DNA of 61,396 nt from an uncultured Bacilli bacterium (GCA_944355355.1 CALVQE010000003.1:1-61396), one strand, 5' to 3'. Shown: positions 19,714-31,453, numbered from the stretch's first letter. Notes: generated from the sequence alone by a model not told the origin. Translations and numbers: made by a program.

Positions 19714-20706
19714 TTATTTGTGAAAGGATTTTTTGTAAACTAAACATGCGTCTTTTTCATGTGTTGGGACGTCACTTAAAAAAACATTTTCAAAGTGGCA
19801 AGTAGACTGAAAAGATTCATAATAGTATGTATTATCTGGGAATACTTCATCGCGTATTTTTTTATTAAAAATAGCCGGTTCATCACATTCTTCGAGAATA
19901 GTATAAATATAACCAATAATTATAATGCCGTCATCATTGAGATTCGCTTTATATCTCATTATAAAATTTTTAAATTTTTGTAATGCGGCTTTTTCTTCTT
20001 CAAGTTTTGTTTCATAAAGTGTGTCTGGGTTGAATATACTATTTGCATATTGGATAAGATTCGAAAAGTACATTAAATCATAGTGTTTGTTTAGTACTAA
20101 ATCTTTAAGATTTTTGTTTATAAATGTTATTTTTATAGACGGTGACATTTCTTTAATTTTTTTAAAATCTCTGTCATTTAAATAATGAACTGTTTTTTCT
20201 AAAGTGGATCTTTTATATTCATCGAAGGAAAAAAGACAATCTTTTTCTCTAATTTTATAGCCCTTATATCTGGTAAATAAGTTAGTCCAAAACTTATAAC
20301 TATTTCCTTTTAAAAAGGGGATAATTTTTACAAAAATTTTTTCGTTAAAGCTTTCTAATGATTCTGTATAATCTTGGCTACTCCAAAAAAATGACAGATA
20401 TTCTTCTTTGGTTAAATCAGCTCTTAAAGCAGCTCTCTTTAGATAAAATAAATACTTAGTTAAAGGGTTTATATCAAAAGCAGTGACACTTTTTGCGCCT
20501 CTTAGGTACATATCAAACACTTGGTCAGATGATCCTAATACGCTTAGGCAATCTTTTTCTTTAAAATTAAAACAATCAAACATACCGTTTATGTTCTCAT
20601 TTGTAAACGGATAAATCATATCAAACATGCTATCACGGTTTCGATAAAATGCATGATTTTCTATCAAATATTTTGCTTTTTTTAAATCGTTTTCTAGATT
20701 GGACAT
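19714..20706 (-). CDS. DUF3419 / BtaA-like SAM-dependent transferase family protein
   Basis: CLSVLGSSDQVFDMYLRGAKSVTAFDINPLTKYLFYLKRAAL follows the DUF3419 pattern (SaG.n.l..ll.g...V.avDlNp.Q..ll.LK.aa). Confidence 0.55.
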   Translation of the reverse strand: MSNLENDLKKAKYLIENHAFYRNRDSMFDMIYPFTNENINGMFDCFNFKEKDCLSVLGSSDQVFDMYLRGAKSVTAFDINPLTKYLFYLKRAALRADLTKEEYLSFFWSSQDYTESLESFNEKIFVKIIPFLKGNSYKFWTNLFTRYKGYKIREKDCLFSFDEYKRSTLEKTVHYLNDRDFKKIKEMSPSIKITFINKNLKDLVLNKHYDLMYFSNLIQYANSIFNPDTLYETKLEEEKAALQKFKNFIMRYKANLNDDGIIIIGYIYTILEECDEPAIFNKKIRDEVFPDNTYYYESFQSTCHFENVFLSDVPTHEKDACLVYKKSFHK

Positions 20707-21161: not shown

Positions 21162-22388
21162 ATGGTTAAAGATAAAGAAAAGTTTGTTTATTATTTTCTG
21201 CTTTTTCTTCCTATTATTGATTTATTTACGTCTATTGCAACTTGGGAAGGGTGGCCTAGTATTGGGCTTGTTTTGAAAGGCTTTTTTCTTCTTTTTGCTG
21301 TTGTTTTCCTTTTGAAAAAAAATTATAAGAAGAGGTATTATTGGTTTTTTTTCTTTTTGGTACTTCTTTATGGATTACTTGATATTGGATATTGGATGTT
21401 ACAAAATCCTTCTAATGTTATAACGGAAATTACGCATTTGATTAAGGTTTTTTATTTGCCGGTGCTCGTTTTGTTTTTTGGTCAATATGAAAATAAGTAT
21501 TTATCTAAGAAGACATTTTTCTATTTATCTTGTTTGTTTCTTTTGTTTTATTTAGTTCCTTATCCTTTTGGTCTTGGCCATAATATTTCTGAGGTATATC
21601 CTAATAAAGATCTGTATCTTTCTTATTTTTATATCGGAAATGAACTTGCGAACATTTTTATTATATTAGTTCCTGTTGGAATAATGTATTTGCTAGAAGT
21701 GAAGAAGAAGGTTTGGTTAGGAATTTATTTGCTTTTTGTTTTCTTTATGCTATTGCTTTTAGGTACAAAAACGATGTATATTAGTGTTTTTCTTATATTA
21801 ATTTATTTTCTTTTGCGATATCGTAAGTGTGTATGGAAGATAGTTCGTAAGCATTTAGTATTGTTTGGAGTAGTTATTGTTTTTGGAATATCTTTTTTAG
21901 GTATATATTTGCCAAGAAGTCAGTTTTGGAAAAATATTGAGACGTCTTTAAATTTTTATGAGGTTAATTCTTTAAGAGATTTGTTTACTTTAGAAAATAT
22001 TGATAATATTATTTATAGTAATCGTTTGGATTTTTTAGGGAATGTTCATGAGGAATATGCTCGTGGTTCATTATCCGTGAAATTGTTGGGATTGGGTCGA
22101 ACTAGGATTGCTGAGATAAAGGATATAGAAATTGATTTGTTTGATATTTTCTATAGTATCGGTATAATAGGTTTTATGGTGTATGTTTTGTTTTTTGGAT
22201 TTGCTTTAAGACAAGTTAGATTGACTGGTATTTATTTATTTTTGTTTATTCTTTTAGGTGTTATTTCTATGTTTACAGGACATGTGCTTATTAGTCCGAT
22301 GACTTCTACTTATTTGGCTTTGTTATTCGGTGTTTGTTTAGAGGAAAGGAGGAGTTCGTGTGAAATCATGGACCAAAAAGCAACTTAG
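21162..22388 (+). CDS. O-antigen ligase/polymerase-like (Wzy_C-type) polytopic membrane protein
   Basis: At least 10 predicted TM segments. The motif block IEIDLFDIFYSIGIIGFMVY is shared with the middle domain of the 847-aa protein at 28355. Confidence 0.55.
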   Translation: MVKDKEKFVYYFLLFLPIIDLFTSIATWEGWPSIGLVLKGFFLLFAVVFLLKKNYKKRYYWFFFFLVLLYGLLDIGYWMLQNPSNVITEITHLIKVFYLPVLVLFFGQYENKYLSKKTFFYLSCLFLLFYLVPYPFGLGHNISEVYPNKDLYLSYFYIGNELANIFIILVPVGIMYLLEVKKKVWLGIYLLFVFFMLLLLGTKTMYISVFLILIYFLLRYRKCVWKIVRKHLVLFGVVIVFGISFLGIYLPRSQFWKNIETSLNFYEVNSLRDLFTLENIDNIIYSNRLDFLGNVHEEYARGSLSVKLLGLGRTRIAEIKDIEIDLFDIFYSIGIIGFMVYVLFFGFALRQVRLTGIYLFLFILLGVISMFTGHVLISPMTSTYLALLFGVCLEERRSSCEIMDQKAT

Positions 22389-22905
22389 ACGACTTAGAAT
22401 TGCTTGTATGATTAATAGTGATAAAAGAAATGCTTATTTAAAAAAACATCATATTTTTTATGAAATGGGTGATAATGTTTTTTTTCAACCTCGGTTTATT
22501 CCTTCTGATCCTAAGTTGATTCGTTTTCATAACAATATTGTGGTAACAAGTAATGTTACGTTTGTGACGCATGATATTTTTCATTTGGCTTTAAATAATA
22601 TAGAAAAGGGAAGTTTTTCTTATTGTCAAGAATGTATTGAAGTGATGGATAATGTGCTTATTGGGTGTAATTCAACGATTTTAGGTGGTGTAAGAATTGG
22701 GCCAAATGCTTTAATTGCAGCTGGTAGTGTGGTGACGCATGATGTGGAGCCTAATACAGTTGTGGCAGGAAATCCAGCAAAGGTGATTGGAACTTTTGAT
22801 GATTTTGTAAAAAAGAGACGAGAGAGTACTTATATGATGAGTAATGAAGCATTGTGGGAGAAGTTTTATCGCGAAAAAGAGAAAAGAAACGAGTGTAAAA
22901 AATAA
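22360..22905 (+). CDS. Hexapeptide-repeat (LbH) O-acetyltransferase
   Basis: IGCNSTILGGVRIGPNALIAAGSVVTHDVEPNTVVAGNPAKVIG. Start uncertain (22360 or ATG 22408). Confidence 0.8.
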   Translation: MKSWTKKQLRRLRIACMINSDKRNAYLKKHHIFYEMGDNVFFQPRFIPSDPKLIRFHNNIVVTSNVTFVTHDIFHLALNNIEKGSFSYCQECIEVMDNVLIGCNSTILGGVRIGPNALIAAGSVVTHDVEPNTVVAGNPAKVIGTFDDFVKKRRESTYMMSNEALWEKFYREKEKRNECKK

Positions 22906-22956: not shown

Positions 22957-23259
22957 AGCCATGCTCACGTAGAACAATTATTTGACTATTCTAGTGACAT
23001 TAGAAGAGTTATGTATGCAACTAATGCCATTGAATCTGTAAATTCATCCTTTAAAAAAGTCACAAAAAAAGGAACATTTCCTAGTGAAGATGCCCTTTTA
23101 AAAGTTCTTTATTTAAGGATAACAGAATTGCAAAAAAAGTGGGACAAAGCACATGTTCATAACTGGGCTATGGTGCATAATCAACTTGATGCTCATCCTA
23201 AATTTAAGGATAGAATTCGTAAATACAATCATTGCTCTTTGACAATTTGGTTTTTATGA
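22957..23259 (+). pseudogene. C-terminal fragment of an IS256-family transposase
   Basis: SHAHVEQLFDYSSDIRRVMYATNAIESVNSSFKKVTKKGTFPSEDALLKVLYL..KKW matches the conserved IS256 (Transposase_mut) C-terminus. The reading frame opens right after a TGA at 22954. Confidence 0.8.
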
Positions 23260-23396
23260 AATTTCAAACAACTTACACATTTTTCTTGATATATCTTGTA
23301 TGCTAGTTTTACAGCTTAAAAACAAGTTTTTTAATATTCGTCACATTGATTTTTTATTCATCCTATTATCCTCGTGTTTATAACCTTTGTTATATT

Positions 23397-25058
23397 TTAA
23401 TCAAGGTATTGTTCTAAATTGTTTATAACTTTTTTGAATTCATCTAACATTGCTGGTCTGTCACGAAAATATTGTTCGTTAATTTCTTTTAATATAGACT
23501 TTACAGTTTCAAGAGAATTGTCGATACGGATAATGTGATTTACTTTAATTGCCACATTTCTATATGCTGTTCTATTACTTGATCTACGAGCTGCATTAAG
23601 ACAAGAATTTTTATAAATGTCTAATAGTTCTTTGTTGTATTTTGGTAATAAGTACTTTTCATATTGTTCTATATTTTCCATGTTATAATGACATACATTT
23701 AAAAATAGATTATTATACATTTTTTCTTCAATATAGATTTGGTTTAGTATTCTGTCTGTAAAATTATCTTTCTTAAGCTTATTGATTATTTTTTGTTTTT
23801 CTTCATTCCAATCATTATTAGAATATAACTCTTTTATTTTAAGATAAGTGTCAAAGTCATAATTGGAATATTTATGGAATAAATCGTATAGCATGGTTTT
23901 ATACTCATTATTCATTTTATTCTTAGCATAGATTTCTACCAGTTTCGAAGCGTATTTATTATTTTTGTATTTATCGTCGTTTAAGTTCATTTTTAATTTG
24001 TTTATTGCGTCTTCTAATCTTTTGTTTTTGATTAGTTCATCGACATACATCAGGCAAACATTTTCATCATAACTATGTTCCTCTAATAGGGGAATAATTT
24101 TTTCATCTTTTTCTTTTAACTTATAAATTTGGATTAAATAATCTATGTAATTTTTTCTGTTAAAAAAATATTTTTTATCTTTAAATTTCTCTAGTGATAG
24201 TTCTAACGCCTCTTCTATTTTGTCGAGATATAGTTGTTCATCAATAAAATATTGTAAAATGTTTTTTAGAACGATGCCATAATTGTATAAATTTGCGGTT
24301 TTAACATCGTTTATTACTAAGTTTAATATATCTTTTAATAGTTCATCTGAAGACTTGATGTTATTTAAAATATCCCATATGATATCTATACATTCTTCGG
24401 CGATCATTCCTGTCGAGCCATTTGAATCATCTATTTCTGTTTTTGGAATGGATGATAATATGACATTTGTAATTGTAAAGGCTGTATCGTAGTTTTTTTG
24501 CTCTATTAATTTTTTTGCTTCACTTATGAATCCAAGCATTACGTGCTCGTAGTGAAAGGAAGCTTCGTAATTAATATAACCGTATTTTTGATCCCCACAA
24601 CTTCTAATTGCGGTATAAATTATTTGTTCATAATTTTTTTGGGATAATGCTGGAAAAAATTCATTAAATTCTATTCTAAACCGATTTAGTAAAGCTTCAT
24701 CGTTTCTTAGACATTGATAAAGGAATTCTTTTACTTTTGCACTGTCAATTCTATTTATGATATTTTTTAAATCGTCACTCTTTTTTGGGGATAATTCTTT
24801 TTTTTCGTTTAGGTAGTATAAGACTGCAGCTATGTGTTTACAATACTTTTCATCTCTATTGTAAGAACAGCTACATTTTCCATCTAAAAAGGTATTATCT
24901 TCTATTATCATGCTTACTATGTAATCATCTTTTCCATGAACTATTGCTGTTATTTCATCACCGTTCATTTTGAATTTATCCACTTTACCTGAAATATAAT
25001 AATCATAACCTCTACTTAAAATATGGTTTAAAAATTTGTGTTCAAAATTTATATTCAT
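23397..25058 (-). CDS. SWIM zinc-finger protein with a long alpha-helical-repeat C-terminal region
   Basis: CxCx8CxH, read as KCSCSYNRDEKYCKHIAAV (nt 24834-24875). The remainder is K/N/E/L-rich and helical. Confidence 0.75.
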   Translation of the reverse strand: MNINFEHKFLNHILSRGYDYYISGKVDKFKMNGDEITAIVHGKDDYIVSMIIEDNTFLDGKCSCSYNRDEKYCKHIAAVLYYLNEKKELSPKKSDDLKNIINRIDSAKVKEFLYQCLRNDEALLNRFRIEFNEFFPALSQKNYEQIIYTAIRSCGDQKYGYINYEASFHYEHVMLGFISEAKKLIEQKNYDTAFTITNVILSSIPKTEIDDSNGSTGMIAEECIDIIWDILNNIKSSDELLKDILNLVINDVKTANLYNYGIVLKNILQYFIDEQLYLDKIEEALELSLEKFKDKKYFFNRKNYIDYLIQIYKLKEKDEKIIPLLEEHSYDENVCLMYVDELIKNKRLEDAINKLKMNLNDDKYKNNKYASKLVEIYAKNKMNNEYKTMLYDLFHKYSNYDFDTYLKIKELYSNNDWNEEKQKIINKLKKDNFTDRILNQIYIEEKMYNNLFLNVCHYNMENIEQYEKYLLPKYNKELLDIYKNSCLNAARRSSNRTAYRNVAIKVNHIIRIDNSLETVKSILKEINEQYFRDRPAMLDEFKKVINNLEQYLD

Positions 25059-25076
25059 ATACTTGCTCCTGTTCTT

Positions 25077-26093
25077 TTATTTAAACTTTTCGTTACATTT
25101 TTCCAGATCAAAATCATTGATGTCATACTCGCCCCAGGAATCATCTTCACCACTAAAGATTCTACTAAGTCCCCAAAGACCACCGCAGTCGTCTATAATA
25201 CCGTATCCCTTACCACTTAATACTTCAAATTCTTTGGGGCCATAGCCATTTTCTATTTTGCGAAGCGTTACATTAAATTGCCAACCATCTCCCCAATCAT
25301 ATATGATTTTCAAACGTTGTTTTTCTTTTAAATCCAGATAAGATAGTTCTAGATCTTCGAAAAATTCATCTAGGTATTCTTTGTTTATATTCATTTTATA
25401 AACATGAAATAAGTCGCCGTTCATAGAAAGAATTACATTTCGGCAAAAATCATCAATTATGATATTACTATTCACAGCAATTTTTCTTTTGATTTCTTTA
25501 TTAAAACCTTCTAGGGAAACGTTAAATATATATTTTTGAGGTAAAAATCTCATTTTTCTTTGTTTCTGATAGGCTTCAATTCTATCATTTGTTTCCTTAA
25601 TATCAAATTTCTTTTGTAAATATTCTTTTTTGTTTTTTGAAATCTGTGTTATAAATCTTTTGTTTTTTCCATCTAGCAGTTTTTTTAAATAGTAAGGACT
25701 TACATTATCCATGATGCCGTATCCTTTGCCTGATAACAATTTAAAATCTATCTTTTGATTTTCTAAATCGCTTTTTATTGTTTCCTCTACTTTTAATTCA
25801 AAGCAATATTCCTCATAAAAATTATAGTTGATATGCATAATAGAATTTTTTGTTAATTTTAAATCTTTTAAGGTTAAGTCAAACATGTTTTTTTCATTTT
25901 CAACGTTCTCTGTTATGTAAGAGTAATATGTAACTTCATCGTATTCTAAGTCATACATAAGTATTTTTTCCCCATTCATTGATACAATCACAAATTCACA
26001 TAATGTTGCTAACTCGATATTTTCATCCACTAGTATTTGTCTGTTAATTTTTGTTTCTAAGCTTTCTACTGTTACATTAAATAATATTTTCAT
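25077..26093 (-). CDS. Protein with two tandem pRiA4b ORF-3 / MM3350-like domains
   Basis: Domain 2 has IIYDWGDGWQFNVTL and GIIDDCGGLWG (family pattern YDFGDxWxH ... EDCGG). Domain 1 is a degenerate copy (HINYNFYEEYCFELKV, GKGYGIMDN). Confidence 0.7.
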   Translation of the reverse strand: MKILFNVTVESLETKINRQILVDENIELATLCEFVIVSMNGEKILMYDLEYDEVTYYSYITENVENEKNMFDLTLKDLKLTKNSIMHINYNFYEEYCFELKVEETIKSDLENQKIDFKLLSGKGYGIMDNVSPYYLKKLLDGKNKRFITQISKNKKEYLQKKFDIKETNDRIEAYQKQRKMRFLPQKYIFNVSLEGFNKEIKRKIAVNSNIIIDDFCRNVILSMNGDLFHVYKMNINKEYLDEFFEDLELSYLDLKEKQRLKIIYDWGDGWQFNVTLRKIENGYGPKEFEVLSGKGYGIIDDCGGLWGLSRIFSGEDDSWGEYDINDFDLEKCNEKFK

Positions 26094-26229
26094 AATTTAT
26101 TTCCTTTCTCTCATCTATTTTGTTTTTTGTTTTCCAATTATTTATTATTTCTAAATAATAATTGTTTGAATAATCTAAGTATTCTTTAAATAAGTTATAC
26201 TTTCTTAAAGTATTATAAAACTTATCCAT
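26077..26229 (-). CDS. 50-aa ORF (below the track cutoff) bridging the 244-aa and 338-aa genes; probable displaced C-terminus of the upstream gene
   Basis: Hand translation gives MDKFYNTLRKYNLFKEYLDYSNNYYLEIINNWKTKNKIDERKEINYENII. Its ATG overlaps the upstream stop (tATGGATAAg), and its end overlaps the ATG of the 338-aa gene by 17 nt. Confidence 0.5.
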   Translation of the reverse strand: MDKFYNTLRKYNLFKEYLDYSNNYYLEIINNWKTKNKIDERKEINYENII

Positions 26230-26956
26230 AATTATGGTTTCTAAGGGTATAAAATAAAAATTTTCTTATTTCTTTATCTGTTACGTTGTTCTTTATATAG
26301 GAAGCCATAATTTTTTTGTGATTAAGATAACGATATTCAGGAAGCATGTAAATATTTAGGTCTTCATAATCAGGTATTTTTACTGCATTTTTTTCTTCAA
26401 GTGTTAATTTATGATAATTATCCGGAATATATTTTCTTAGATGGTCAAACGGATTTACGATACTGTTTATATCTGCCTTGTAAAAGAATGTCATTCGATC
26501 ATTCGTGATTCTTAAAATGTCGATTAAAGAAGTGCTTTCATATTCATCTTTCATTAGTTCTGCATTTATTTTTGCTATCATATTTTCATCGAGATGTTCT
26601 TCTTTTCCGGAATTGTTTTTCGGGGGAATGTTTTTACTCTCTATATATTTTATAATAATTTCTGGTATGTTATGGTTACCATATTTTAAAGTAAGTTCCT
26701 TCATAGAACTCCAAGCTAAGTCTTTTAGCACTACTGACATAGTTGATTTGCATTCTTCCTTATCATATATTTTATTTGCACTATCAAAAGTTTTATTCTC
26801 ATAAGAAATGTTATAACATTCACCGTAAAACAATTTGAACGTTGCTAAAGTAATATAGGCTAAATCTGCTAGGGTATCCGTATCTTTCATTTCTATTTTT
26901 TTCTTGTTTTTTCTACCTTTCTTTTTTGTGATTTCAAATATAAATTTTTTTGCCAT
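26222..26956 (-). CDS. Hypothetical protein, C-terminal part UPF0158-like (possibly frameshift-truncated)
   Basis: The tail LPEYRYLNHKKIMASYIKNNVTDKEIRKFLFYTLRNHNYG resembles the UPF0158 pattern as recalled. The continuation lies in the +1 frame. Confidence 0.5.
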   Translation of the reverse strand: MAKKFIFEITKKKGRKNKKKIEMKDTDTLADLAYITLATFKLFYGECYNISYENKTFDSANKIYDKEECKSTMSVVLKDLAWSSMKELTLKYGNHNIPEIIIKYIESKNIPPKNNSGKEEHLDENMIAKINAELMKDEYESTSLIDILRITNDRMTFFYKADINSIVNPFDHLRKYIPDNYHKLTLEEKNAVKIPDYEDLNIYMLPEYRYLNHKKIMASYIKNNVTDKEIRKFLFYTLRNHNYG

Positions 26957-26980
26957 TTTACCTCCTTTATGTAATACATT

Positions 26981-26997
26981 AGCAAATATTATTTGCT
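26981..26997. promoter_or_regulatory. Perfect palindrome AGCAAAT-att-ATTTGCT, 25-41 nt upstream of the island operon start codon
   Basis: Read directly. The half-site-containing 13-mer aatattatttgct recurs at 27118-27130. Confidence 0.35.
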
Positions 26998-27306
26998 ATT
27001 TTCTCTGTGTAATTTTGTACATTTTTTATATTTAATGCCTAATAATTAATGTTTTTGGGCTTCTTATTTTATCAGGATTTAAATCTTGATAAAAATATTC
27101 AGTTAATTTGTAACTGTAATATTATTTGCTTTTTAATTAAATTTAGACGTATTTCATTTTACTCCATTCAATACATATCATATCATAATTGCCAGCTGAA
27201 CAGAACATTAATGAATATATAGGGAATAAATTTTTTTAATGAGCTTAAATTGTTGAAAAAATATTTATTTTTAAGGTATAATAAGTCTTAAGAAGGAGCT
27301 TGTTTT

Positions 27307-28380
27307 ATGAAATTAGAAGTATCGCTTTTCAATGTTTTGTTAATGATTTTGACGACTTTTGTAGTCAGTTTGATTTTAGTTCCTATTTTTAAGAAAATTG
27401 CACTTCATATTGGAGCTATCGATTATCCAAATCAAAGAAGGTTGAATAAGGTACCTATGCCGACTATAGGTGGTTTAGCTATTTTCTTTTCTTTTTTGTT
27501 TGGATATATGTTTTTTGGTAGAGGTACAGTTGAGATGATTTCTATTTTGATTGCTTCCTTTATTATTTTGTTTGTTGGTCTGGTGGATGATATTAAACCA
27601 ATTAGTGCAAAGTATCAACTTATTGGACAGCTTATTGCTGTTATGGTTATTGTTTTATATGGAAAAATTACAATTGATCGTTTGACTATTTTAGGGGCAA
27701 CGCTTACTTTCCCTGAGCCTTTAAATTATTTGGTGACTATTGTTTTCATGTTAGGGATTATTAATGCTATTGATTTATCGGATGGTATGGATGGTCTTTG
27801 TGGCGGCATTAGTGTCATTTATTTTATTACAGTTCTTATTATTGCTATTTTACTGGGTATGGCTGGAAATATTGATACGACAATTTCTATTTTAATGATT
27901 GGATCAACGCTTGGCTTTTTAGTGTATAATTTTCCACCAGCTAAGTTGTATTTAGGGGATTCTGGTAGTAATTTTGTTGGACTTATGATTGCAACGACAG
28001 CTTTGTATGGTTTTAAGTTAGCTACATTTACTTCTCTTTTAATTCCACTTGCTATTTTGGCAACGCCGATTATTGATGTATTGTTTGCTATTATTAGGCG
28101 GGGTCTTAAGAAAAAAAATCCATTTACAAATCCAGATAAGGAACATTTACATCATCAGCTTTTAAAAATGAAATTTTCTACTCGAACTTCACTTATGGTT
28201 ATTTATGTGATTAATCTTTTGTTTTCTGGAGTTTCTATTTTGTATGCTTTGGGAGACTTGAATTTGGCGCTTGCTTTGTATATTGCACTTATGGTCGTGT
28301 TCTTATTTATTGTTTTAAAAACTGATATTTTGTTTCCGAAGCGGGGGATGAAAGATGAAAAAAAATTACGCAAGAATTAG
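27307..28380 (+). CDS. WecA/TagO-type (MraY-family, GT4) undecaprenyl-phosphate sugar-1-phosphate transferase
   Basis: Polytopic. Motifs GGLAIFFSF, VGLVDDIKPISA, NAIDLSDGMDGL and GDSGSNFVG. Confidence 0.85.
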   Translation: MKLEVSLFNVLLMILTTFVVSLILVPIFKKIALHIGAIDYPNQRRLNKVPMPTIGGLAIFFSFLFGYMFFGRGTVEMISILIASFIILFVGLVDDIKPISAKYQLIGQLIAVMVIVLYGKITIDRLTILGATLTFPEPLNYLVTIVFMLGIINAIDLSDGMDGLCGGISVIYFITVLIIAILLGMAGNIDTTISILMIGSTLGFLVYNFPPAKLYLGDSGSNFVGLMIATTALYGFKLATFTSLLIPLAILATPIIDVLFAIIRRGLKKKNPFTNPDKEHLHHQLLKMKFSTRTSLMVIYVINLLFSGVSILYALGDLNLALALYIALMVVFLFIVLKTDILFPKRGMKDEKKLRKN

Positions 28381-31150: not shown

Positions 31151-31453
31151 AAATAATCACAAAATTGCAATGTTGTATATGACGAATTGATTTGTTTAGG
31201 CTATGATGTTTATGTTGGCAAGACGATTAAAGGAGAAGTGGATTTTCTTGCTTCTAAGAATGGTGAAATAAAATATATCCAGGTTTGTTATGATTTATCT
31301 CATGAAGAAACCCGAAAAAGAGAATTTGGGGCATATGATACGATTAAAGATCAATATCCTAAGTATGTTATATCTATGAACTCGGAAGATTATTCGATAA
31401 ACGGCATTAAACATTTAAATATTTTTGATTTTTTGATGAATGATGAGTTTTAG
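31151..31453 (+). pseudogene. C-terminal stub of an AAA_14/DUF4143 ATPase gene
   Basis: VVYDELICLGYDVYVGKTIKGEVDFLASKNGEIKYIQVCYDL..TRKREFGAY matches the DUF4143 C-terminal (restriction-endonuclease-like) module. The frame opens after TAA 31148, and there is no ATPase part. Confidence 0.7.

Follow-up and report, generated by a model that had tools for sequence, protein, structure and literature searches.

A SWIM-solenoid gene linked with MM3350 and UPF0158-like genes in gut Bacilli: a possible accessory module of defence-island type

Three linked genes in a clade of gut Bacilli

We analysed 61,396 nucleotides (nt) of DNA from an uncultured Bacilli bacterium (GCA_944355355.1 CALVQE010000003.1:1-61396; this whole stretch is called the window below) and found an island at positions 22957-27306 with three genes, named here A, B and S, which very probably make up one co-inherited and selected functional unit in a clade of gut Bacilli. 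The S protein joins a SWIM zinc finger to an α-solenoid, the B protein has two MM3350/pRiA4b-ORF3 domains, and the A protein combines an MM3350 domain with a remote UPF0158-like domain (Table 1). Linkage within the clade is argued for by gene order, spacing, co-divergence, selection, the re-association of the domain types and the fusion of MM3350 with UPF0158. As to its role, we tentatively regard the trio as an accessory sensor/adaptor module of its host, of defence-island type, which is a lead rather than a demonstrated system.

Open reading frames (ORFs) were called in 88 loci and then searched with hidden Markov models (HMMs) of the families. Besides the window species, at least four lineages have the A-B-S order; it was seen in L106/L107 (S 75% identical) and in L001/L008/L026 (63% identical). 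Co-occurrence outside this genome, on which a preliminary description of the island had staked its proposal of a new system, was thus observed in other lineages and at other sites. The module lies at different chromosomal positions in different lineages of uncultured gut Bacilli, and three of its sites are unrelated: the wall-polysaccharide locus of the window, a SecA/KilA-N...PfkB site (L106) and a site with DUF6088/AbiEii, DUF6429 and orphan genes (L001/L008/L026). NrdD/TrpRS is among its other contexts in relatives. The genes overlap by 17 nt or are separated by 13-22 nt; in the window, gene A overlaps the start of B by 17 nt, and the 18-nt gap ahead of the 553-amino acid (aa) gene S is as first described. 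The tightly packed operon of four ORFs in that description kept its packing, but the ORFs are really three genes, one of which is damaged.

Around S genes of moderate divergence, the other two domain types are frequent. Among about 23 species-level loci with an S at least 38% identical, MM3350 lies within 3 kb in 14 and UPF0158 in 11, and a B gene stands immediately upstream of S in 13 of the species-level loci examined. The domain types also re-associate: B-S is followed by a stand-alone UPF0158 gene in L012, L013, L016 and L019 (L013 has several MM3350 copies), the order is S-UPF0158-x-MM3350 in L020 and L021, and UPF0158-S in L050. Gene A itself, where MM3350 and UPF0158-like domains are fused, links both. 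The identities of B and S co-vary (r = 0.87, 28 pairs). Purifying selection acts on each of the genes, with ratios of nonsynonymous to synonymous substitution rates (dN/dS) between the window species and the 75% identical lineage of 0.25 (A), 0.18 (B) and 0.16 (S).

The trio could also be thought to serve the wall-polysaccharide locus as housekeeping or regulatory genes. Its position between the O-antigen-ligase/acetyltransferase and WecA-like/glycosyltransferase blocks is the one piece of evidence in favour, against which stand the unrelated contexts elsewhere (SecA/PfkB, NrdD/TrpRS, AbiE arrays), the strand opposite to that of the locus, and a trio with no glycan-related domain. We therefore consider such a role highly improbable. 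The recurrence of the order at different sites, the low dN/dS values and the co-divergence of B and S agree with the earlier proposal of an accessory unit.

The SWIM-solenoid protein

Gene S matched the Pfam SWIM family (PF04434) with 24.6 bits (cut-off 19.6, E 1.8e-5) and has the CSCx8CKH ligands. In an AlphaFold model (predicted local distance difference test, pLDDT, 90.2), a four-stranded sheet with a zinc knuckle (residues 1-85; β-strands within 26-62) is followed by about 25 helices (97 to 552), so that the N-terminal finger and long helical body noticed earlier in this protein are both real. The four zinc ligands are invariant across 134 diverse representatives of the family. The same alignment revealed a [I/M]-D-D-S-x-G loop in the solenoid (D210 91%, D211 94%, S212 85% and G214 85% conserved), and W417, E445, R496, Y499, R534 and E540 are likewise conserved (85-100% range). 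These residues point to a conserved binding site with no known catalytic motif, and the DDSxG loop is a candidate ligand- or partner-binding site. A Foldseek search of the model against the PDB returned generic TPR/solenoid matches only (template modelling score, TM-score, at most 0.31), with no enzyme fold among them; a profile search of PDB sequences with S gave no match, and neither did NCBIfam or PHROGs.

The S family is very large. An exhaustive profile search yielded 1,825 clusters at 50% identity (E ≤ 1e-30), and more than 446 relatives, all in Bacillota, came out of a scan with the profile that covered one genome for each species. Two Erysipelotrichaceae metagenome-assembled genomes carry four to five tandem SWIM-solenoid paralogues, some of them split (L045, 5160-11632; L068, 3028-9615), and these arrays are flanked by ordinary genes. 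A 'DUF6880 family protein' gene of a Streptomyces plasmid (NZ_CP027023.1, 167829-168740) encodes a protein that aligns to S residues 17-331 with 21.6% identity (E 2e-6), suggesting that the SWIM-solenoid superfamily may include the actinobacterial DUF6880 proteins as a distant branch.

Genes B and A

The 338-aa B protein matched PF07929 in two stretches (106 bits against a cut-off of 26.6, E 2e-30), the second of which carries the canonical YDWGDGWQF and DDCGG motifs; the two MM3350-like domains first noticed in it are therefore confirmed by Pfam. All 170 homologues of gene B contain PF07929. No match to gene B was found in NCBIfam, PHROGs or PADLOC (PADLOC E ≤ 1). In L118 (7001-15044), a B-family gene with two MM3350 domains lies directly upstream of an apparent Wadjet-type cluster, composed of a JetD_C gene and then genes of 508 aa, 244 aa (DUF6063) and 1,458 aa; the nearby SWIM-solenoid gene is a 248-aa fragment.

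Gene A had been taken for two genes, one of 244 aa with a UPF0158-like tail and a 50-aa bridging ORF. Its relatives (291-338 aa) read straight across the junction of these ORFs, and a comparison of strains located a 2-base pair (bp) deletion (TATATGG to TATGG) there, present in all same-species contigs covering the site but L090, where gene A is intact and encodes 293 aa. The island thus has three genes, not four. In addition, about 50 residues are missing from gene A, which correspond to the latter half of the MM3350 domain in its 335-aa relatives; the next-closest lineage (P0122, P0123) has the same loss. Because of this internal loss, the window copy has no PF07929 match in Pfam. The full-length relative P0124 matches at residues 5-175 with 57.8 bits, and the MM3350 crystal structure 2i1s overlays its model (pLDDT 90.8) with TM-scores of 0.71-0.73. 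In a Foldseek search of the PDB, the A-family model matched only MM3350, via its N-terminal half, and the C-terminal 160 residues of P0124 had no structural match in the PDB or BFVD; two uncharacterised giant-virus proteins were matched in a viral structure library. A profile search of PDB sequences with gene A gave a weak 2i1s match only.

UPF0158 (PF03682) is the sole Pfam match of the gene A C-terminus, and it falls below the 21.1-bit cut-off: 12.0 bits (E 0.22) for the repaired window gene and 16.7 bits (E 0.0075) for P0124. Stand-alone neighbours of S of 134-141 aa in L050, L012, L019, L013, L020 and L021 reach 33-69 bits, and an HMM of the gene A C-terminus finds these neighbours with E-values of 4e-6 to 0.03, bridged by a 143-aa protein of L016 (E 5e-41). 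Conversely, an iterated search from the UPF0158 protein of L050 recovers the window gene A. The C-terminus of A is therefore best called a remote UPF0158-like domain rather than a certified family member, since it misses the Pfam cut-off and yet is linked transitively to bona fide UPF0158 proteins; of the tail first reported, the relationship stood and the direct family match did not. Gene A has no match in NCBIfam, PHROGs or PADLOC, and the 50-aa ORF likewise has none in PADLOC (E ≤ 1).

Because a recent 2-bp deletion interrupts gene A, this strain may have a partly impaired module. One could go further and regard it as a decaying relic, non-functional in this genome and merely fixed in the species, given that the frameshift is present in nearly all strains, that the internal deletion of about 50 aa removes half of the MM3350 domain, and that neighbouring accessory genes are eroding too (for example, the DUF4143 ATPase remnant described below). 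We find this quite unlikely, as B and S, both intact, are 99-100% identical in at least 20 contigs from several metagenome projects, and the shortened A, which the 70-75% identical lineage also has and whose dN/dS is 0.25, has been maintained. The start codon of the 50-aa piece, an ATG, shares bases with the stop codon upstream of it (ATGGATAA), so that the piece could still be translated by coupling.

The island, its flanks and the IS256 remnant

ORF calling and a domain scan reproduced the minus-strand ORFs and the flanking genes at 22905 and 27307 given in the preliminary description (Table 1). The truncated IS256 remnant beside the island is also real: it matched Pfam Transposase_mut at positions 333-378 of 379 (E 5.8e-6) and NCBIfam IS256 at positions 297-336 of 338, both at the C-terminal end of the family. 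It is convergent with gene S, and the same-species contigs reaching beyond S contain it too. The island had been called IS256-stub-bounded, but the stub lies at one side only, the island is not bounded by repeats, direct or inverted, neither a complete DDE transposase gene nor terminal inverted repeats are present, and the stub is missing near the trio in L001 and L106. It is incidental and not part of the module.

Table 1. Coordinates of the island genes, their parts and the neighbouring features, counted from the first nucleotide of the window
Feature	Position	Strand	Description
O-antigen-ligase-like gene	21162-22388	plus	Left flank, wall-polysaccharide block
Hexapeptide acetyltransferase	22360-22905	plus	Left flank, wall-polysaccharide block
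IS256/Mutator-family transposase remnant	22957-23259	plus	C-terminal remnant, about 100 aa; frame open from 22957, ORF 23011-23259
Gene S	23397-25058	minus	553 aa; SWIM zinc finger and TPR-like α-solenoid body
[I/M]-D-D-S-x-G loop of S	24417-24431	minus	D210-G214, in solenoid; alignment of 134 representatives
SWIM zinc-finger core of S	24807-24884	minus	Residues 59-84 (Pfam); ligands C62, C64, C73, H75
Gene B	25077-26093	minus	338 aa; two MM3350/pRiA4b-ORF3 domains
Gene A	26077-26956	minus	Frameshifted, 293 aa when intact; shortened MM3350 and remote UPF0158-like domain
Gene A fragment ORF, 50 aa	26077-26229	minus	
Gene A fragment ORF, 244 aa	26222-26956	minus	
2-bp deletion splitting gene A	about 26227-26232	minus	Strain comparison
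Divergent intergenic region	26957-27306		350 bp, between gene A and WecA-like gene; presumed promoter region of the trio
GT4/WecA-like gene	27307-28380	plus	Right flank, wall-polysaccharide block

The island is more AT-rich than its surroundings, as had been noticed by eye (26.5% GC against 30.8% for the window, within the lowest 1% of equal-sized segments). However, the GC content at third codon positions (GC3) is 0.23-0.25, equal to that of the flanks, which indicates that the low GC comes from amino-acid content and not from foreign codon usage; the compositional argument for a foreign origin is therefore weak. In at least 20 same-species contigs from several metagenome projects, the island occupies one and the same site, and no empty site was seen among them. 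Together with the lack of bounding repeats and the GC3 value, this indicates an old and ameliorated insertion.

These observations bear on another reading, in which the trio would be cargo of an IS256/Mutator-type composite transposon, serving transposition control or maintenance, with the stub as a scar. Eukaryotic Mutator-like element (MULE) transposases contain SWIM domains, and the IS256 remnant does adjoin the trio. On plasmids, only remote solo SWIM-solenoid genes are found, usually among transposases; distant ones occur on Bacillus thuringiensis and haloarchaeal plasmids amid transposases and recombinases. The literature we found notes MM3350-family members only as plasmid or transposon passengers, and pRiA4b-ORF3-like genes are documented as passengers of ISAzba1-group Mutator-like transposons (PMC3942029). 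Nevertheless, a one-sided stub with neither terminal inverted repeats nor target duplications, the lack of a transposase near the trio in L001, L008, L026, L106 and L112, the fixed site in all the same-species contigs and the GC3 of the flanks make the cargo reading improbable.

In the divergent intergenic region, just one sigma-70-like match is strong (11/12, 27253-27282); it is oriented toward the WecA-like gene, and a promoter scan of this AT-rich DNA identified none for the minus-strand operon. The scan was uninformative, with promoter and terminator counts at or below the shuffled expectation. A near-perfect 18-nt palindrome at 27067-27094 (TTTTATCAGGATTTAAAT / ATTTAAATCTTGATAAAA), between gene A and the WecA-like gene, could be an operator. 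The same wall-polysaccharide locus holds a second insert that varies among strains, a DUF3419-family gene (330 aa, 19714-20706, minus strand, GC 27%), which is missing from strain L088 and present in L089, L090 and L093. An 88-aa ORF at 31187-31453 (plus strand) is the remnant that a deletion in the window strain has left of an AAA_14/DUF4143 ATPase of 400 aa, whose C-terminal end it matches over its whole length (99% identical); at this position L088, L096, L098 and L100, of the same species, have the gene intact.

Defence-type neighbourhoods of the S genes

The closest known counterpart of S is among the candidate defence genes of PADLOC. PDC-S62 (model PDLC05053) matched residues 12-239 of the window S over profile positions 21-247 of 566 (E 5e-19), and the S relative P0062 (41% identical) over positions 19-546 (E 1e-26). 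The preliminary description had anticipated that the island would be absent from known systems; genes A and B match no component model in PADLOC (E ≤ 1), but S matches this candidate over part of the profile.

We then scanned the immediate neighbours of S genes (148 genes from about 78 loci) with Pfam and PADLOC. The Pfam matches included PRiA4_ORF3 (9 members), UPF0158, AAA_14, GNAT and CxxCxxCC (4 each), NUDIX (3), and HEPN and Fic (2 each), and the PADLOC matches included PDC-S01 (4), MADS mad2, MADS mad3 and PDC-S07 (3 each), and JetA (Wadjet), AbiLi, AriA, mad8 and PDC-S04 (2 each); these counts, taken without a matched background, are suggestive of a defence context. BREX (PglX, PglZ, BrxL), GmrSD and a DUF4143 ATPase lie directly upstream of P0062, AbiEii adjoins the trio of relatives in the L001/L008/L026 arrays, and S relatives often have such genes, and restriction-modification genes too, as neighbours. 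The P0062 locus (L114, 1-13455), a gut Bacilli contig, is a compact defence island in which the BREX part (with a PglX/MmeI-type methyltransferase, PglZ and BrxL), GmrSD and the AAA_14/DUF4143 ATPase are accompanied by P0062 and a member of orphan family C2 (522 aa).

The S genes of relatives lie within same-strand arrays of variable order with other orphan families. C2 (about 520 aa, 11 loci) has no match in Pfam, PADLOC or PHROGs, C3 (144 aa) has an integrase SAM-like domain only, C7 (86-100 aa) is DUF6429, C10 (164 aa) has a CxxCxxCC domain, and C13 has 110 aa. Such families stand beside S in L001 (3592-5918 and 9762-10091), L008, L009, L012, L018, L025, L026 and L114. None of the recurrent neighbour families of S matched PHROGs. 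There is one S relative in 2.9 million IMG/VR viral contigs, against the more than 446 among bacterial species genomes, and GenBank phage records contain three weak matches; a phage origin of S was rejected on account of this near absence. An immunity array of a polymorphic-toxin system was also considered and set aside, since the arrays inspected have no adjoining toxin gene of the LXG, RHS or similar kinds; it survives only within the account of independent cassettes given next.

The arrays suggest a different account of the trio, in which S, B, A/UPF0158, C2, C3, DUF6429, CxxCxxCC and C13 would be independent cassettes, that is, separate binder proteins (immunity-, antitoxin- or anti-effector-like) accumulating on one strand, and the A-B-S adjacency would reflect shared residence and recent common descent. 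Array composition and order do differ between loci, S is solo in most loci and B is found without S, tandem S paralogues (L045, L068) and multiple MM3350 genes (L013) are typical of diversifying binder families, and the arrays are dominated by repeat proteins and small orphan families with no enzymatic domain. On the other hand, the order of A, B and S, with overlapping or coupled genes, is kept down to 63% identity at three sites, the three domain types re-associate in other architectures, two of them are fused in gene A, and the arrays examined have no LXG or RHS gene beside them. We thus regard independent cassettes as rather unlikely, though they come next after the sensor/adaptor module among the explanations weighed here.

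A tentative model and its significance

In the reading that we tentatively favour, an accessory sensor/adaptor module, S would be the core, a non-enzymatic sensor or scaffold, as its fixed stand-alone architecture, conserved SWIM module and conserved solenoid surface suggest. The N-terminal SWIM module would recognise nucleic acid or a partner, and the solenoid, with the DDSxG loop and conserved Arg, Glu, Trp and Tyr residues, would bind a ligand or partner. The MM3350 and UPF0158 proteins might be clade-specific adaptor or regulatory subunits that bind S, in view of the gene order, fusion, domain re-association and co-divergence. The module would then act in the host's conflict with phages or other mobile DNA. 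Because A, B and S have no effector domain, interference might proceed by binding, sequestration or recruitment of host factors; this step is speculative.

Several findings weigh against this model. Searches of A, B and S with Pfam, NCBIfam, PHROGs, PADLOC and Foldseek revealed no effector or enzymatic domain (nothing of nuclease, NADase, protease, kinase or pore type), most strains of the species have a frameshifted gene A, and the limit on the neighbour counts given above applies here as well. Outside the clade, the partners are largely missing: of about 60 loci with an S at most 30% identical, none has MM3350 and only L050 has UPF0158, and almost all of the 150 best-scoring representatives of the S family stand alone, at 540-580 aa and without a fused domain. 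Gene B occurs without S in L119 and L120-L122, and in L118 the S gene nearby is a fragment. When 80 environmental-metagenome loci (GC 29-64%) were scanned around UPF0158 genes, SWIM neighbours turned up only in L134 and L160/L164 and an MM3350 neighbour only in L186, about 4 loci in all; the SWIM/MM3350 link of UPF0158 is rare outside the gut Bacilli clade. The partnership of S with MM3350 and UPF0158 is thus facultative and confined to one clade. Finally, PDC-S62 is itself an unvalidated, single-gene computational phage-defence candidate, and our literature search found nothing on PDC-S62, on the biology of UPF0158 or on an association of SWIM, MM3350 and UPF0158.

The preliminary description had already suggested a conflict system, by defence or addiction, or a mobile-element accessory system, and had recognised no enzymatic domain. 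The latter observation holds in Pfam, NCBIfam, PHROGs and PADLOC. The PDC-S62 match and the defence neighbours lend the conflict part support from context, while the sequences themselves reveal no mechanism. There is no evidence for addiction, since no toxin family was found in A, B or S in Pfam, NCBIfam or PADLOC, nor any effector, and the IS256 stub does not belong to the module.

A broader proposal would place SWIM-solenoid proteins at large as the sensor core of a widespread immunity against mobile elements that has no enzymatic domain, the gut Bacilli clade having recruited MM3350 and UPF0158 as dedicated subunits. The spread of the family (about 1,800 clusters at 50% identity, in Bacillota and beyond) is the scope of this proposal, which we hold to be doubtful. 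If true, it would give three orphan domain families their first joint biological role. Similarly, if the trio were a complex that restricts phages or plasmids, a PDC-S62-like candidate would become a characterised system and thousands of orphan genes could be annotated. Otherwise, the gene model of the island has still been corrected to three genes, of which one is frameshifted, and the IS256 stub has proved incidental.

MM3350/pRiA4b-ORF3, UPF0158 and the bacterial SWIM-solenoid proteins are large families without an assigned function, and the literature searched offers nothing on their biology. The locus and its relatives provide a concrete linkage among them, through the MM3350-UPF0158 fusion, the A-B-S order and the re-association of the domain types, and the defence islands with BREX, GmrSD, AbiE and Wadjet indicate where a phenotype may lie. 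The trio is a reasonable lead for experiments, although the hosts are uncultured.

Comparison with known families and systems

S resembles PDC-S62 in standing alone, in its length (about 550-566 aa) and in having a SWIM module at the N-terminus and a helical body, and both occur in defence-island contexts. The match is remote, however, with at most 92 bits over 566 positions, and in the window S it covers the N-terminal 40% only. Moreover, PDC-S62 is defined as a single gene, whereas S travels here with MM3350 and UPF0158 genes that lack PADLOC models. By profile comparison, S thus appears to be a remote subfamily relative of PDC-S62.

Gene B scores above the cut-off of the MM3350/pRiA4b ORF-3 family (PF07929; 2I1S), and the model of the full-length gene A relative superposes on the family's structure. 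Unlike the described members, this family appears here as a tandem-domain protein, in a fusion with UPF0158 and in linkage with a SWIM-solenoid gene, arrangements found in no paper retrieved. As for UPF0158 (PF03682), stand-alone members above the cut-off flank S and are linked by profiles to the C-terminus of gene A, but the domain of the window gene A itself reaches 12 bits against 21.1, and elsewhere SWIM or MM3350 neighbours are lacking for most UPF0158 genes.

Two more distant likenesses concern S. Eukaryotic substrate receptors of the ZSWIM8 type (PDB 9rwz) also have an N-terminal SWIM followed by a long α-solenoid (Foldseek E 9e-4), and the ZSWIM8 solenoid serves the recognition of macromolecular complexes. 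However, the TM-score reaches only 0.16, the sequences show no similarity, and bacteria have no cullin-binding context; the likeness is an analogy that offers a lead and does not argue for homology. The N-terminus of DpdE, the helicase of the Dpd DNA-modification defence system (PDLC02850), weakly resembles residues of about 10-100 of the S family (E 1e-5 to 8e-3), but the SWIM module alone is shared, and S is without a helicase or ATPase domain. The S family is very large and was already flagged as a defence candidate; what appears to be new is a multi-gene form with unreported partners.

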